Positions 1,386 to 33,365 of a stretch of 64,000 nt of DNA are shown here, piece by piece. Under the pieces are notes generated by a model. It did no database searches and was not told the origin of the DNA. It saw nothing but the letters and a program-made list of their open reading frames with translations. The number at the start of each line of letters is the position of its first letter. The stretch's first letter is position 1. A program made the position numbers and the translations under genes. The DNA comes from an uncultured Gemmatimonadales bacterium (GTDB lineage: Bacteria > Gemmatimonadota > Gemmatimonadetes > Longimicrobiales > RSA9), in the NCBI GenBank assembly GCA_963708135.1, contig OY970192.1:5280001-5344000 (forward strand), given 5' to 3'.

Positions 1386-3128
1386 ATGCGCATCCCCTCG
1401 ATCGCCGCGACGGCGCTCCTCGCCGCGCTCGCCGCCGCCGTGCCCGCCGGCGCCCAGACCCGCGGCGCCGCGCCTGCCGACACCGCGCGTCCCGTCATCA
1501 CGAAAGCGACGCTGCGCGCCGCGCTCGACCTGGTCGGCCTCCGCTACACGGACGCCCAGCTCGACCTGCTGCTCGCCCGGCACGGCCGCGCCGGCAGCGA
1601 CTTCGGCGGCCGTGGCGACCGCCGCGGCGACTACGCCGCGATCCGCCGCGCCCTCGACGCCGTTCCGGTGGCCGACTCCGTGCCGCCCGCCCTCTTCTTC
1701 GAGCCGCTCCCGCCGGCCGTGCCGATCCCCGACCGGCCGCCCCGCTTCGCGGCCCTGCCGGCGGACGTCCAGCGCCCGGCAAACCTCGAGGACGTGGCCT
1801 TCTGGCCGATCCCGAGGCTGGCCGCGCTGCTCCGCTCGAAGCAGGTGACGTCGGTCGAGCTGACGCGCATGTTCCTGGCGCGGCTGCACCGCTACGACCC
1901 CGACCTCCACGCCGTCGTCACCTTCACCGAGAGCCTCGCCCTCGCCCAGGCCCGCGAGGCCGACCGCGACTTCGCCGCCGGCCGCGACCGCGGGCCGCTC
2001 CAGGGGATCCCGTTCGGCGCCAAGGACCTCTACGCCGTCCCCGGCTACCCGACCACCTGGGGCGCGAGGCCGTACGAGCACCAGGTGATCGATCGGACCG
2101 CCACGGCGGTGAGGAAGCTGGAGGAGGCCGGCGGCGTGCTCGTCGCCAAGCTCTCCTCAGGCGCGCTCGCCCTCGATGACATCTGGTTCCGTGGCCAGAC
2201 GCTGAATCCGTGGAACCTGAAGGAGGGATCCGGCGGCTCCTCGGCCGGCCCGGGCGCCGCCGTGTCGGCCGGGCTCGTGCCCTACGCGCTCGGCACCGAG
2301 ACCTGGGGCTCCATCGTCGAGCCGTCCACGAAGACCGCCGTGGCCGGGCTGCGCCCGAGCTTCGGCCGCGTGAGCCGCGCCGGCGTCATGGCGCTCTCCT
2401 GGTCCATGGACAAGGCCGGCCCGCTCTGCCGCACGGCCGCCGACTGCGCCCTCGTGTTCGACGCCATCCGCGGCGCCGACCCCGCCGACCCGACCACCCG
2501 CGACGCGCCGTTCCCCTACGTCGCCGGCGCCTCGATGGACGGCAGGCGGATCGGCTACATCGAGGCGGAGCTCCAGGGCGACCGCCCCAATGTCGCGCTC
2601 GCCCGCGCCGTCGTGGACACGCTCCGCCGCCTCGGCGCCACGCTGGTGCCGATCGCGCTGCCCGCCGAGCCCGTGCGCTCCCTCTCCTTCCTGCTGAACG
2701 CGGAGGCCGCCGCCGCCTTCGACGCCCTCACGCGCTCGCACCGCGACACGCTGCTCGTCCGCCAGCCGGACCCGAACGGCTGGGCCAACACGTTCCGCTC
2801 CGCCCGCTTCATCCCCGCCGTCGAGTACATCCAGGCCAACCGCGTCCGGCGGCTGGTGCAGGAGGACATGAGACGGACGCTGAAGGGGCTCGACGCCTAC
2901 GTCGCGCTGCCCTACGCCGAGAACCTGCTGCTGACCAACCTGACCGGGCAGCCGTGCACGGTCGTGCCCGACGGGAAGCTGCCGAACGGCGACTTCACCA
3001 GCATCACCTTCTGCGCCCGCATGGACGACGAGGCGGACGCCCTCGAGGCGGCCGCCGCCTACCAGGCCGCCACCTCCTGGGACGAGCTGCACCCGCCGCG
3101 GTTCGGCGGGCACGCGGCCGGCCGGTAA
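1386..3128 (+). CDS. Secreted amidase (amidase-signature family)
   Basis: Signal peptide MRIPSIAATALLAALAAAVPAGA. AS-family motifs GIPFGAKDL, GSGGSSAGPGAAV and GTETWGSI. Confidence 0.88.
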   Translation: MRIPSIAATALLAALAAAVPAGAQTRGAAPADTARPVITKATLRAALDLVGLRYTDAQLDLLLARHGRAGSDFGGRGDRRGDYAAIRRALDAVPVADSVPPALFFEPLPPAVPIPDRPPRFAALPADVQRPANLEDVAFWPIPRLAALLRSKQVTSVELTRMFLARLHRYDPDLHAVVTFTESLALAQAREADRDFAAGRDRGPLQGIPFGAKDLYAVPGYPTTWGARPYEHQVIDRTATAVRKLEEAGGVLVAKLSSGALALDDIWFRGQTLNPWNLKEGSGGSSAGPGAAVSAGLVPYALGTETWGSIVEPSTKTAVAGLRPSFGRVSRAGVMALSWSMDKAGPLCRTAADCALVFDAIRGADPADPTTRDAPFPYVAGASMDGRRIGYIEAELQGDRPNVALARAVVDTLRRLGATLVPIALPAEPVRSLSFLLNAEAAAAFDALTRSHRDTLLVRQPDPNGWANTFRSARFIPAVEYIQANRVRRLVQEDMRRTLKGLDAYVALPYAENLLLTNLTGQPCTVVPDGKLPNGDFTSITFCARMDDEADALEAAAAYQAATSWDELHPPRFGGHAAGR

Positions 3129-29654: not shown

Positions 29655-30428
29655 CTATGTCCGCGAGAACAGGGCGAAGCGGCCGCCCTGCGGGTCCTTG
29701 CAGGCGCCGATGCGGCCGCCGCCCGGGACCTCCATCGGGCCGTGGATCACGGTTCCGCCCGCCCTCCGGACGCGCTCCAGCGCGGCGTCGAGGTCCTCGA
29801 CGTTCACGTAGTAGAGCCAGTAGGGCGGGGTGGTCATGGCGTCCGGCTCGAACATCGCGCCCGTGGCCACGTCCTCGGGCTCGTCGGCGGAGCGGAACGT
29901 GAGGTAGGGTCCCGCCTCGCCCATGTCGATCGTGCCCGCGTGCTGCCAGCCGAACAGCTCGGAGTAGAACGCCCAGGCGCTCTCCCGGCCCGTGGTGTGC
30001 AGCTCGTGCCAGCCCACGAAGCCCGCCTTCGTCCGGTCGAAGCCCGGCGCTTCGTTCAGGCGCTGGAGCAGCGCGATGACCGCTCCCTGCGGGTCGGCGA
30101 TCACGGCGAAGCGGCCCACCTCCGGGATGTCGGTGCCCGGCACCAGGACCGTGCCGCCCAGCTCCTGCGCGTGCCCGGTCGCCCTGTCAGCATCATCGAC
30201 GGCGACGAACCCCGCCCAGCGCGGCGGCACCCCGGCGCGGGCCTCCTCCTCGGGCAGCGGGCCGATCCCGCCGATCGTCGTCTCGCCCACCGTCCACATG
30301 ACGTACGGCTGCTCGCCGCCGCTCCACTCCTGCGTCCCCCAGCCCGTGACCTCGGTGTAGAAGGACCGCGCCGCCTCCCGGTCGGTGGTCCAGAGGTCGT
30401 ACCACACGAAGCGTCCCTTGCCGGCCAT
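29655..30428 (-). CDS. VOC-family (glyoxalase/bleomycin resistance) two-domain protein
   Basis: FVWYDLWTTD...DPQGA repeated as WHELHTT...DPQGG. AAGGAGG RBS. Confidence 0.9.
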   Translation of the reverse strand: MAGKGRFVWYDLWTTDREAARSFYTEVTGWGTQEWSGGEQPYVMWTVGETTIGGIGPLPEEEARAGVPPRWAGFVAVDDADRATGHAQELGGTVLVPGTDIPEVGRFAVIADPQGAVIALLQRLNEAPGFDRTKAGFVGWHELHTTGRESAWAFYSELFGWQHAGTIDMGEAGPYLTFRSADEPEDVATGAMFEPDAMTTPPYWLYYVNVEDLDAALERVRRAGGTVIHGPMEVPGGGRIGACKDPQGGRFALFSRT

Positions 30429-30563
30429 GCTGCCCTCCTTCGTATCGGGATCGAGGCGGTCTCTGTGCACGCCTCCATCCATACGTCGAACGAGCCCGGC
30501 CGGCATCGACACGCCCTCCCCGATCCGCCGCCAGTCGCCGGGCGCAGCGCGCAACAGGCACGC

Positions 30564-31454
30564 TCAGCCGCCCGGACCCTGCTCCTGCGGCCCGCATGCC
30601 AGCGCCGCGACCTGCCGCTCCCACTCGCCTTCGTCGCGCGCCTTGCGCGCCCGGAAGTTGATGCCGAGCGTGCCGAACTCCGCCGCGCTCGACGCCTGCG
30701 GCGCGCCGGCGAACACGTCCGCCCGCCAGGTGATCTCGAATCCCGTGAATCCCGCGGCCACGACCGTGGCCTGGAGCTCCGCTTCCAGCAGAGCGCCCGC
30801 GATTCACCCCTTCCACAGATCGATGTCGCGGCGGGCGCCCTCGCCCACCGGCTTCTGCACCAGGATGTCCGCCAGCTGGAGGCGCCCGCCCGGCCGGAGC
30901 ACGCGCGCCATCTCGCCCAGCCCCGCCAGCTTGTCCGGAAACAGGTTCAGCACCCCGTTCGAGATCACGACGTCCGCCCATCCGTCCGGCACCGGCAGCG
31001 ACTCGGCCAGCCCTTCCCGGAACTCGACGTGCGAGGCACCCATCCTGGCCGCCGCCGCCCGTGCCTTCGTCAACATCGCCGGCGTCATGTCCACCCCGAT
31101 CACCCGCCCCTCGGGACCCACCATCTTCCCCGCGATCAGACTGTCGATGCCCGCGCCCGCCCCGACGTCCACCACCCGCTCGCCCCGACCCGGTGGGCCG
31201 AGGCTGAACGGATTCCCCGTCCCCGCGAACGACGCGATCGACTCCTCCGGCACTCCCTCGAGCCAGGCTTCCTCGTAGCGGAGGAGCCGCGCCAGCGGCC
31301 GCCCAGTGTGGAAGTGGAAGCCCCGCTCTGGATCCGCCGCCACCGTCGCGTACTCCTCCTGGATCGCCTCCCGCAGCCGCTCGACGTCGAGGCCCTCCGT
31401 CGGCCGCGCGACGTGGGGCAGCGTCTGCGCCGGAGCACGTCCCCTTCCTGCCAT
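30564..31454 (-). CDS. ArsM-like SAM-dependent methyltransferase, probable selenoprotein (TGA at 30804-30806 = Sec)
   Basis: VDVGAGAGID, GVDMT and ISNGVLNL.PDK. Reading continues in frame LWKG-TGA-IAGALLE, where ArsM has W.GC.AGAL. SECIS-like hairpin follows. Confidence 0.8.
30776..30806 (-). promoter_or_regulatory. Putative bacterial SECIS element
   Basis: UGA-AUCGCGGGC-GCUCUGCU-GGA-AGCGGAGC: 8-bp stem with a G-first apical loop ~18 nt after the UGA. Confidence 0.65.
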
Positions 31455-31568
31455 CTCGACCTCCCGGATCCTGGCGTGGTCGGGCCCCCTCCCCGGCGGA
31501 GCGGCCCCTTGACGCCGGTGGTTGTTCCGCTACTCTATGGAGCATTGGAATACGACGCAAGGGACGAC

Positions 31569-32270
31569 ATGGGACACCGCGAGCTCAAGGATCCGCTCTA
31601 TCAGCAGTTCGCCCGCATCGGCGACGCCCTCGGCAGCCCTCGCCGCATCGAGCTCCTCGACCTGCTGGCGCAGGGCGAGAAGACCGTCGAGCGGCTGGCG
31701 GAGCAGGCGGCGATGCCGGTGAAGAACACCAGCGCGCACCTGCGCGTGCTGCGGCAGGCACGCCTCGTCGAGACGCGGCGGAACGGCACGTTCGTCCACT
31801 ACCGCCTTGCCGGCGACGACGTCTTCGACCTGCTCCGCGCGCTCCAGATCGCGGCCCGGAACCGTCTCGCCGAGGTGGAGCAGGTCACGAACCTGTACCT
31901 GACGCGCCGCGACGCGCTCGAGCCGGTCACGGGCGAGGAGCTGCGTCGCCTGGTGCGGGAGGGTGGCGTGACGGTCCTGGATGCGCGCCCGCGTGAGGAA
32001 TACGAGGCCGGGCACATCCCCGGCGCGCTGTCCGTGCCGGTGGATGAGCTGGAGCGCCGGCTGTCGGCGATTCCGGCGGACCGCGAGGTGATCGCCTACT
32101 GCCGCGGCCCCTACTGCGTGTTCGCGCTGGAGGCCGTGACGCTCCTGCGGGAGCGCGGCTACCGCGCGCGGCGGGCTGAGGACGGGCTGCCGGAGTGGCG
32201 GTCGAGCGGGATGCCCGTCGCGACCGGCCCGTCGCCATCGAGTGAACCCACCGACCAGAGGCCGCGATGA
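31569..32270 (+). CDS. ArsR/SmtB regulator fused to a rhodanese domain
   Basis: LYQQFARIGDALGSPRRIELLDLLAQGEKTVE HTH; LDARP.EEY..GHIPGA and AYCRGPYC rhodanese motifs. Confidence 0.92.
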   Translation: MGHRELKDPLYQQFARIGDALGSPRRIELLDLLAQGEKTVERLAEQAAMPVKNTSAHLRVLRQARLVETRRNGTFVHYRLAGDDVFDLLRALQIAARNRLAEVEQVTNLYLTRRDALEPVTGEELRRLVREGGVTVLDARPREEYEAGHIPGALSVPVDELERRLSAIPADREVIAYCRGPYCVFALEAVTLLRERGYRARRAEDGLPEWRSSGMPVATGPSPSSEPTDQRPR

Positions 32271-32357
32271 TCCTGCGTCAGTTCCTTCACCACGATCCGA
32301 CGATCGCGGCCTCGTACCTGTTCGGCTGTGGCAGCCGGGCGGTGGGCGCTATGGTCC
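32267..32357 (+). pseudogene. 5' remnant of an MBL-fold hydrolase (persulfide dioxygenase-like)
   Basis: ATGA-coupled MILRQFLHHDPTIAASYLFGCGSRAVGAMV, then non-coding-like sequence; no HxHxDH motif reached. Confidence 0.6.
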
Positions 32358-32700: not shown

Positions 32701-33096
32701 TCAGTGGCTCCAGTCCTCCACGTCGAGCCCGGGTACCCGCTCGAACTCCCGCGTGTTGGCCGTGACGACCCTGAGGCCGGCCGCGAGCGCCATGCACGCG
32801 ATCATCAGGTCGCGATCGCCGATCGGCATCCGCCGCAGCTCGTGGCGCAGCCGACCGTGCAGCTCGGCCGCCGGCCGCTCGAACGGCAGCACCGTGAAGT
32901 TCTCGAGCAGGCGACCCCACCCCTTCAGCTTCCGCTCCGGCGCACCGCTCTTCACGGCACCGTACCAGAGCTCGGCGATCGTCACCACGGAAATCGCCAG
33001 GTCGCCGGGGCTCTCACGCCTCAGCCGGTCCCGTACCGCCGCCGGTTCGCCGCGCTGCGCGTGGATCAGCACGTTCGTGTCCAGCAGCCAGATCAT
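32701..33096 (-). CDS. vapC: VapC PIN-domain toxin
   Basis: [30 protein letters not shown] and [14 protein letters not shown]. Confidence 0.93.
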
Positions 33097-33365
33097 CCCT
33101 CGTCCGTATCTCCGTCCTGGAACCGGATCGAGAGCGGGGCGACATCGCCCAGCTCGAGCTCATCGCGGTGCCGGTCCACCCAGGTCCAGAAGCCGCGCGG
33201 CCACTCCCGCTTCTTCACCGGCTCGAGGACGACGGCGTCCCCCTCCTTCCGGATCGACACCTCGTCGCCCGGGAACCGGAACTCCTTGGGCAGTCTCACT
33301 GCCTGTGAGCGCCCGTTCCAGAACAGCTTCGCCCGCCTGTCCTTCGACCCTGTTCCATCGCCCAT
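33093..33365 (-). CDS. vapB: VapB/AbrB-type antitoxin
   Basis: [20 protein letters not shown]; overlaps the vapC start. Confidence 0.92.

Follow-up and report, generated by a model that had tools for sequence, protein, structure and literature searches.

Does the in-frame TGA of an ArsM-like methyltransferase gene in an uncultured Gemmatimonadales bacterium end the protein or encode selenocysteine (Sec), and what would such an enzyme methylate? The gene lies on the minus strand of a 64,000-nucleotide stretch of contig OY970192.1 (assembly GCA_963708135.1, positions 5,280,001 to 5,344,000), which is called the window here and is numbered from its first letter. The comparisons described below indicate that the UGA at codon 217 almost certainly encodes Sec. 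The gene is a genuine, mis-annotated selenoprotein gene, a branch-level variant of the catalogued Sec-ArsM family. The account as a whole, in which a Sec217-decoded methyltransferase of the ArsM lineage would combine a soft-chalcogen mechanism with control by an ArsR-rhodanese regulator, is given a probability of roughly 60%.

A Single Reading Frame with an Internal UGA

The minus strand from 31454 to 30567 is one frame of 296 codons, and its sole internal stop is the TGA at 30806..30804, which is residue 217. The two open reading frames (ORFs) that translation table 11 gives here, 30804..31454 and 30564..30761, both lie in this frame. An earlier note, made from the letters of the window alone, had proposed just such a frame, split by one TGA and encoding a methyltransferase of about 296 residues, and both points hold. 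The protein reads ...DIDLWKG-U-IAGALLEAEL... around Sec217 and ends in ...GPGG.

The Pfam domains of the protein (Methyltransf_31/25/11) define it as a class I S-adenosylmethionine (SAM) methyltransferase. Its best NCBIfam matches are all of ArsM type, and it scores below the cut-offs of all four: NF041537 (230.9 bits, cut-off 510), NF047649 (205.9, cut-off 460), NF008823 (204.2, cut-off 263), and NF041536 (202.6, cut-off 575). By sequence, the best-matching solved structures are ArsM chains, namely 5evj and 4fr0/4kw7/5eg5. In HMMER alignments to these chains, U217 is aligned with the Cys of GEC(L)(A/G)GAL, ISNGV lies opposite ISNCV, and GTGNP lies opposite the GCGNP of 5evj. The alignments confirm the FAGTGNP and ISNGV motifs on which the earlier note had remarked, which stand opposite WGCGNP and ISNCV. 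An AlphaFold2 model built with 52 family sequences (predicted local distance difference test score, pLDDT, 94.1; predicted TM-score, pTM, 0.92) has an ArsM-type fold by Foldseek: its top 12 matches are all ArsM or AS3MT structures, human AS3MT included (TMq 0.58–0.64, identity 28–33%).

Very Probable Selenocysteine at UGA217

Homologs were sought in one genome per species of GTDB, and the best 80 of 541 relatives, representing 79 loci, were analysed. The codon in the Sec column is TGA in 76 of the 79 loci (68 + 7 + 1) and TGC in the other 3; TGG occurs in none of them. The TGA forms span at least six phyla. By their record titles, they come from Gemmatimonadota, Chloroflexota (Anaerolineae, Caldilineaceae, Ktedonobacterales, and others), Rubrobacteraceae, KSB1, Thermoanaerobaculia, and Neomarinimicrobiota. 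A comparison with a protein database listed 120 homologs. Fifty-one of these are shorter than 245 residues, and all 51 terminate precisely at ..LWKG. Among the 69 longer ones, a motif pattern classified 40 at the Sec column, as Cys (36), Trp (3), or Tyr (1), while the remaining 29 lie outside the pattern and are hence unclassified at this position.

The sequence beyond the UGA is under selection. Across 41 Sec orthologs, identity to the window protein is 84% in residues 218–272 and 73% in residues 20–216, which excludes a pseudogene. The earlier note had expected Cys/TGA pairing in this column with conservation on both sides, and this is the pattern found. Sec and Cys forms are interleaved on the tree, where 123 sequences require 8 parsimony changes.

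The genome holds the machinery that decoding would need. selA (573 bits), selB (319 bits), and selD (382 bits) all score over their curated cut-offs, and there is one tRNA-Sec (69.7 bits; anticodon tca by ARAGORN), so that selA, selB, selC, and selD, named in the earlier note as a check on the proposal, are all accounted for. The selD of this genome is itself a selenoprotein gene, with its own UGA at GAG-U-ACK (L001:2335-2400, minus strand). In an evenly drawn sample of 301 genomes of the phylum, with a homolog threshold of E ≤ 1e-60, 13 genomes have a homolog, and in 12 of the 13, the window's genome included, the homolog contains one TGA. All 12 TGA-form genomes have selA, as compared with 242 of the 301 overall. 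The single TGA-free homolog in the sample (G097, 45% identity) belongs to a genome without a selA match. Three of the sampled genomes carry a flag as unpublished: G097 and, counted solely for selA, G057 and G157.

Two Conserved Hairpins Downstream of the UGA

Nine nucleotides 3' of the internal TGA, at 30794..30776, lies the hairpin GCUCUGCU-GGA-AGCGGAGC, whose 8-bp stem and GGA loop agree with what the earlier note described. The 76-nt stretch that holds it folds with −39.4 kcal/mol, as against −28.6 ± 3.1 kcal/mol for 200 shuffles (z −3.5), none of which folds as well; the hairpin by itself has −11.0 kcal/mol. The model of the bacterial selenocysteine insertion sequence (bSECIS) calls for an apical loop of 3–9 nt with a G in its first two positions, a stem of 4–16 bp, a distance of 16–37 nt from UGA to loop, and a minimum free energy of at most −7.5 kcal/mol (PMC13188914). 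With its GGA loop, 8 bp, and 17 nt between UGA and loop, the hairpin fits this model at its own folding energy. The Rfam scan of the whole window at gathering thresholds gave no match, hence no curated SECIS family.

The pairing is maintained at the level of RNA. Covariation was assessed in 60 nt around the codon, ungapped, in 76 TGA-form sequences (the window and 75 loci). In hairpin 1, 97.4% of cells are paired and three pairs are altered on both sides, as in the change from GC to CG or UA at pair 24-32. A second conserved hairpin, with a GGUC loop, follows closely. It has 90% of its cells paired. At its pair 45-54, whose partners are both third positions of codons, CG occurs in 34 sequences, GC in 21, and UA in 3. 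Taken jointly, the two hairpins have 94.5% of cells paired (89.0% in shuffles) and 49 double-changed cells (14.6 in shuffles), values that none of 500 shuffles reach, and controls with slid partners pair merely 29–62% of cells. The three TGC forms encode a near-identical peptide and do not form hairpin 1. The selD gene has a like layout: 7 nt past its UGA begins a hairpin of 8 bp with the 3-nt loop GCU, and a second hairpin follows directly. Pairing of Cys with TGA, conservation, a bSECIS element, and the Sec machinery, the marks of a selenoprotein gene, are thus all present in the methyltransferase or its genome. On this reading, which the data support as far as sequence allows, SelB and tRNA-Sec decode UGA217 as Sec under the direction of hairpin 1, 9 nt past the codon.

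These data bear on two other explanations of the UGA. If the TGA were a real stop, whether through nonsense mutation or misassembly, the locus would be a pseudogene or would yield only a product of 216 residues. Table 11 does split the frame, and this is where gene callers end 51 of the 120 listed homologs. Yet 76 of 79 species-level loci share the TGA, conservation is higher beyond it than ahead of it, the hairpin is constrained as RNA, and the genome has the Sec machinery. Furthermore, a 418-nt Logan contig from a public soil run covers 30675..31092 with 0 differing letters and reproduces the TGA. The run is possibly the source sample, so this match, which bears on the earlier note's concern about a misassembled codon, shows just that a second assembler yields the same TGA. 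For this locus no holder of RNA data is listed. A real stop is already contradicted by the present data.

Alternatively, near-cognate suppression or an altered code could insert Trp or Cys at the UGA, with no part for selenium. Counting against Sec here are the Trp at this column in three JGI homologs (P0003, P0004, and P0006) and the Tyr in P0018, residues known from the protein sequences. The earlier note had held that Trp in this column would speak against Sec; none of the 79 genome loci has TGG there. On a tree built with the Sec column masked, the three W proteins and P0018 nest directly beside TGA-bearing orthologs, and all carry the C-terminal Cys typical of Sec forms. Metagenome contigs were scanned for TGG in the motif context. 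This gave 106 matches, of which the 80 examined include none of this family; the one ArsM-like match (L123) is a broken gene of the canonical GCGNP/ICNCV type, outside the family. Since TGA also serves as the terminal stop here and in many orthologs, it is not generally a sense codon in this genome. The W residues appear to be TGA translated under code 4 by the gene caller, an explanation that leans on general knowledge of such programs. Read-through without selenium is very improbable, and decoding as Sec is retained below.

A Branch That Lacks Three of Four ArsM Cysteines

In this branch, which is widespread among soil bacteria, three of the four cysteines of canonical ArsM are missing, and the fourth position is Sec. 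In ArsM numbering the four are C44, C72, C174, and C224, and PDB titles name C72 and C224. The redox cysteines of ArsM, that of GCGNP and one upstream of it, are absent from the methyltransferase, which has FAGTGNP. Of the As(III)-binding pair, formed by the cysteines of ISNCV and GEC..GAL, the second site alone survives, with Sec in it. These replacements extend throughout the family, where the GCGNP Cys position is Thr and the ISNCV Cys position is Gly; Gly167 (ISNGV) is invariant in 52 aligned members.

Residues 1–286 contain no Cys, and the whole protein has one, C287. The earlier note had the enzyme relying on one Sec. The single Sec217 stands, but the enzyme is not left with Sec alone, since this one Cys is kept with the Sec forms. 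Of 77 Sec-form genes examined for the tail, 75 are complete, and 66 of the 75 have a Cys about 19 residues past RARK, where the tail reads EW..AL..L.C. In this column, Cys is absent from all nine Cys forms that can be examined there (L077, L080, L081, P0012, P0025, P0026, P0049, P0096, and P0102). In the AlphaFold2 model, C287 belongs to a helix of residues 275–287, with block-mean pLDDT of 97 (271–280) and 89 (281–290). The pattern suggests that the Cys of the C-terminal helix was gained together with Sec. In two orthologs the Trp codon of the EW in the tail motif has become a stop (TGA in L087, TAG in L100), which cuts off the helix and its Cys.

Comparison with Known Enzymes

Selenoproteins of this kind as such are not new. 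Two reviews, in the parts available, list arsenite methyltransferase, with the motif UxxG, among prokaryotic selenoproteins, and credit the Sec-ArsM family to Fomenko et al. 2007 (PMC13188914, PMC9312934). A table of Peng et al. 2016 counts 41 such selenoproteins in 39 organisms (PMC5029168). The family has thus been catalogued since 2007. The catalogued Sec-ArsM (PRK11873/NF008823 type) and the methyltransferase described here belong to the same fold lineage and have Sec at the same site (U-I-A-G here), Cys in homologs, and a SECIS element directly downstream. The present branch differs in scoring under the NF008823 cut-off (204 versus 263), in lacking the GCGNP and ISNCV cysteines, and in having a conserved C-terminal Cys and a neighbourhood of sulfur type; the catalogues may already list members of it.

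The three other top NCBIfam scorers, NF041537 (ArsM/AhpD), NF041536 (ArsM/DUF2284), and NF047649 (methyltransferase/UXPK-star), go back to Haft & Tolstoy 2025 according to a review table, which also gives them the UxxG Sec site (PMC13188914, available in part). Their members carry two or three Sec residues plus either an added domain or a UXPK tail at the C-terminus, whereas the methyltransferase has one Sec and neither addition, besides scores far from their cut-offs. A second Sec at the terminal TGA is not indicated: no SECIS-like fold follows it (z +1.0), and the stops of orthologs vary in kind and place.

Canonical ArsM and AS3MT (4fr0, 6cx6, 5evj, and 8xt7) share the SAM core and the substrate-binding domain, and the position equivalent to Cys224 is kept. 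In contrast to these enzymes, the methyltransferase retains one of four Cys positions, as Sec, and has no long C-terminal domain, so that it measures 296 residues against 377–387 for full-length ArsM chains. With only one of the four positions kept, the arsenic-binding pair is incomplete. The same genome has what appears to be a separate canonical ArsM elsewhere (G000:C1:2829927-2830739; L101, ORFs 1981..2595 and 1492..1977, minus strand), which reaches 354 bits against NF008823 and has GCGNP, ISNCV, and WVGCVAGAL all present. An in-frame TAA splits it between ...GLDMT and MLELARRN, through either a nonsense mutation or a sequencing error.

TtArsM of Thermus thermophilus is a further point of comparison. 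In the available part of its description, it is a single-Cys arsenite methyltransferase that interacts with the ArsR/SmtB repressor regulating it (PMC8649762). It is likewise an ArsM-like enzyme, is reported to be active with one Cys, and is linked to ArsR/SmtB. Compared by that description, it differs in that its Cys is N-terminal (C77), it has no Sec, and its lineage is distant. MddH, MddM1, and MddM2, known methyltransferases of hydrogen sulfide and methanethiol, are described in the available part of their source as UbiE/UbiG-type proteins of about 200 residues (PMC12904073), and identity with them was rejected, as they belong to another family.

Gene Neighbourhood and Control Region

The features of the locus are collected in Table 1. 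The divergent ArsR-rhodanese neighbour that the earlier note had reported is indeed there; it matches NF033788 with 74.8 bits, above the cut-off of 55. Its only conserved cysteines, C178 and C183, lie in the rhodanese loop CRGxYC and are invariant in 40 of 40 sequences.

Table 1. Features of the methyltransferase locus, in window coordinates.
Feature	Position	Strand	Basis
ArsM-like SAM methyltransferase selenoprotein, coding sequence, 296 residues	30567..31454 (stop TGA 30566..30564)	−	Frame, Pfam, NCBIfam, structure matches, AlphaFold2 model
UGA codon read as Sec, residue 217	30804..30806	−	Aligns to catalytic Cys of solved ArsM; TGA/TGC pairing in orthologs
SECIS hairpin 1, 8-bp stem, GGA loop, 9 nt past UGA	30776..30794	−	Fold, covariation, bSECIS criteria
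Second conserved hairpin, 5–6 bp, GGUC loop, 5 nt past hairpin 1	30757..30770	−	Covariation
Codon of Cys287, sole cysteine of the protein, end of C-terminal helix	30594..30596	−	Sequence; conserved with Sec forms
Shared divergent control region, CTTGCG ... TATTCCAATGCTCCATAGAGTA ... GTCAAG	31508..31561	.	Weaker copy of relatives' block
ArsR/SmtB-type regulator fused to rhodanese domain, 233 residues, divergent	31569..32270	+	HTH_5 and Rhodanese Pfam domains
24-codon remnant of gene for MBL-fold protein resembling persulfide dioxygenases	32267..32338	+	tblastn, 67% identity, residues 1–24 only

Neighbours were counted over the 79 loci, many of which are clipped by contig ends. A fusion of an ArsR helix-turn-helix domain with rhodanese adjoins the methyltransferase in 39 loci. 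An MFS (major facilitator superfamily) transporter is found in 29, a protein of metallo-β-lactamase (MBL) fold resembling persulfide dioxygenases (PDO) in 22, DsrE in 7, and a flavoprotein like sulfide:quinone oxidoreductase (SQR) in 3. The nearest solved chains of the PDO-like protein are 3r2u, 3tp9, 4ysb, 5ve3/4, and human ETHE1 (4chl). The Cys-form locus L080 has CysE-like and CysK-like neighbours. Of the 120 listed homologs, 18 carry a fused TusA domain (Pfam PF01206), as do some Sec forms (L050 and L093, for example), and in NCBIfam the TusA-like tail gives a weak TusA match (30.6 bits, cut-off 78). Among the conserved neighbour clusters of the related loci, there is no arsC, acr3, or arsB.

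The regulator and the methyltransferase share a divergent control region. All 25 aligned divergent intergenic regions contain a block whose consensus, drawn by eye, is CTTGAC-N-TATTCTAATGATCTATAGAATA-N-GTCAAG. The exact pattern TTGAC-N16-19-TAGA[AT]T is found in 11 of the 25, and ATTCTA-N6-9-TAGAAT in 8. The block reads as two face-to-face promoters, with −10 boxes that would serve as the half-sites of a palindrome.

The plan of the module, with an ArsR repressor, a rhodanese, a PDO-like MBL protein, and a transporter, is shared with BigR-Blh of Xylella and Agrobacterium and with cst of S. aureus. Both are operons that respond to persulfides and pair an ArsR-type sensor with a PDO. The profile matches are weak, all below cut-off (NF040642 BigR, 42 bits; NF040641 Blh, 39–72 bits). 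Unlike in those systems, the rhodanese here is fused to the regulator, where it carries the only conserved cysteines, and the module includes a Sec methyltransferase.

Some genomes have two Sec-form paralogs, among them the metagenome-assembled genome that holds both L026 and L061 and, in two places, G040. Another pair, L050 and L083, lies on the same contig about 10 kb apart, and L050 is the copy fused to a TusA-like domain.

Proposed Mechanism and the Question of Substrate

Sec217 occupies the site of the C-terminal arsenic-binding Cys of canonical ArsM, and the other canonical cysteines are gone. We propose that Sec217 would act as the single active-site nucleophile and capture a soft chalcogen species, either sulfane sulfur from persulfides or from a TusA/rhodanese/DsrE relay, or its selenium analogue. 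SAM would methylate the atom bound on Sec217. Attack by Cys287 would then form a Sec-Cys selenenylsulfide and release methanethiol or methylselenol, and a thiol reductant would reset the enzyme. Transcription would start from the shared divergent control region under the ArsR repressor, which would sense its signal through the two invariant cysteines of the rhodanese domain. In relatives, the module additionally includes the PDO-like enzyme and the MFS transporter. The neighbours (rhodanese, PDO-like, TusA, DsrE, SQR-like, and CysK-like) favour sulfane sulfur, or the corresponding selenium species, over arsenite, and the odds that the substrate is a sulfur or selenium species are about even. 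In its most specific form, the proposal is that the branch comprises Sec-dependent methyltransferases for a persulfide or perselenide bound on an enzyme and delivered by TusA, rhodanese, or DsrE carriers, with a Sec217-Cys287 selenenylsulfide cycle and rhodanese-fused ArsR control; this is tentative.

The chief alternative is a true arsenite methyltransferase, in which As(III) would bind Sec217 and Cys287 instead of the usual Cys pair and be methylated as in ArsM, while the ArsR-rhodanese protein would sense arsenite through a vicinal dithiol. The nearest families and structures are all ArsM or AS3MT, the catalogued Sec-ArsM family has its Sec at the same UxxG site, and the regulator is of the ArsR family with a CxxxxC pair. 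An ArsO gene (NF040505, 531.9 bits, cut-off 425) adjoins the methyltransferase in L075, and FMO-like genes (flavin-containing monooxygenase) do so in L022 and L033. TtArsM, for its part, reportedly works with one Cys (PMC8649762, available in part). Set against this are the score of 204 bits under the NF008823 cut-off of 263, the family-wide change of the ISNCV Cys to Gly and of the GCGNP Cys to Thr, and recurrent partners that belong to sulfur-trafficking families. No arsC, acr3, or arsB stands among the conserved neighbour clusters, and the genome has a separate canonical ArsM with all its cysteines, though one interrupted by TAA. On this balance arsenite methylation is unlikely, and less favoured than the chalcogen chemistry proposed above.

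Several points weigh against the sulfur or selenium account and the module built around it. The families and structures nearest to the methyltransferase are all arsenic enzymes, and ArsO-type or FMO genes neighbour 3 of the 79 loci. The single-Cys TtArsM is reported to be active on arsenite, so cysteine loss alone does not exclude this substrate, and Sec217 and Cys287 could jointly serve as arsenic ligands. The tail Cys is missing in 9 of the 75 complete Sec forms, and the gene contexts of Cys forms come from 3 loci only. In the window itself, the module is partly decayed, with a mere remnant of the PDO-like gene and no MFS gene beside the regulator. Its control region matches neither exact promoter/operator pattern, and a scan of 30400..31700 for consensus sigma-70 promoters and intrinsic terminators found 0 of each. 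For the whole branch, substrate and mechanism are read from sequence and its comparisons. The sulfur or selenium account is nonetheless the one carried forward here.

Other Features Near the Locus

Directly downstream of the methyltransferase and in its frame lies a two-domain gene of the VOC (vicinal oxygen chelate)/glyoxalase family (29658..30428, minus strand) with its own AAGGAGG-ATG start. It adjoins the methyltransferase in the window only and in none of the related loci. A fusion of the two proteins by read-through of the terminal TGA was considered and rejected: the 78 nt past this TGA fold like their shuffles (z +1.0), and the gene's own start, the ortholog stops (TGA, TAG, or TAA at varying places), and an adjacency confined to the window also rule it out.

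Beyond the PDO remnant are a PIN-type ORF (32701..33096, minus strand) and a small ORF that overlaps it (33093..33365, minus strand), which look like a VapBC-like pair. About 33 kb past the end of the window, a tRNA array (G000:C1:~5377231-5380300; L015, L020) has at least 20 tRNA genes on one strand, with isotypes Ser, Pro, Gln, Gly, Thr, Ala, Val, Tyr, Arg, Leu, Asp, and Glu. A 48.4-bit Rfam tRNA-Sec match within it is a tRNA-Ser(gct) and was rejected as a second tRNA-Sec.

Implications

A literature search that did not cover Haft & Tolstoy 2025 turned up no paper about this branch, about ArsM-like enzymes fused to TusA, or about regulators of the ArsR-rhodanese type that accompany such a methyltransferase, and the deep-Sep paper (PMC12013277) makes no mention of a methyltransferase, a Gemmatimonad, a Chloroflex, or a novel selenoprotein. 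As far as searched, the covariation of the tail Cys, the second hairpin, the ArsR-rhodanese/PDO-like/MFS module, and its control region have not appeared in print for this branch.

The first consequence is for annotation. The branch is systematically mis-called, because 51 of the 120 listed homologs end at the UGA, no NCBIfam cut-off is reached, and 76 species-level genomes have the Sec form. At least one source labels its proteins 'arsenite methyltransferase'. The substrate of the branch is probably not arsenic, judging by motifs and gene context. Since the branch has no arsenic-binding Cys pair and stands among sulfur genes, surveys of arsM by similarity may overestimate the arsenic-methylating potential of Gemmatimonadota and Chloroflexota.

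The second consequence concerns the biology of the family. The pairing of Sec217 with a C-terminal Cys, together with the repeated interchange of Sec and Cys, offers a natural system for studying what Sec brings to a methyltransferase. The rhodanese-fused ArsR, with its invariant CRGxYC loop and conserved palindromic control region, is a candidate sensor. If the proposed account is true, ArsR repressors with a fused rhodanese domain as their sensor would form a so far uncharacterised class, and soil bacteria would possess a widespread route to volatile methylated chalcogens that gene surveys count as 'arsM'.

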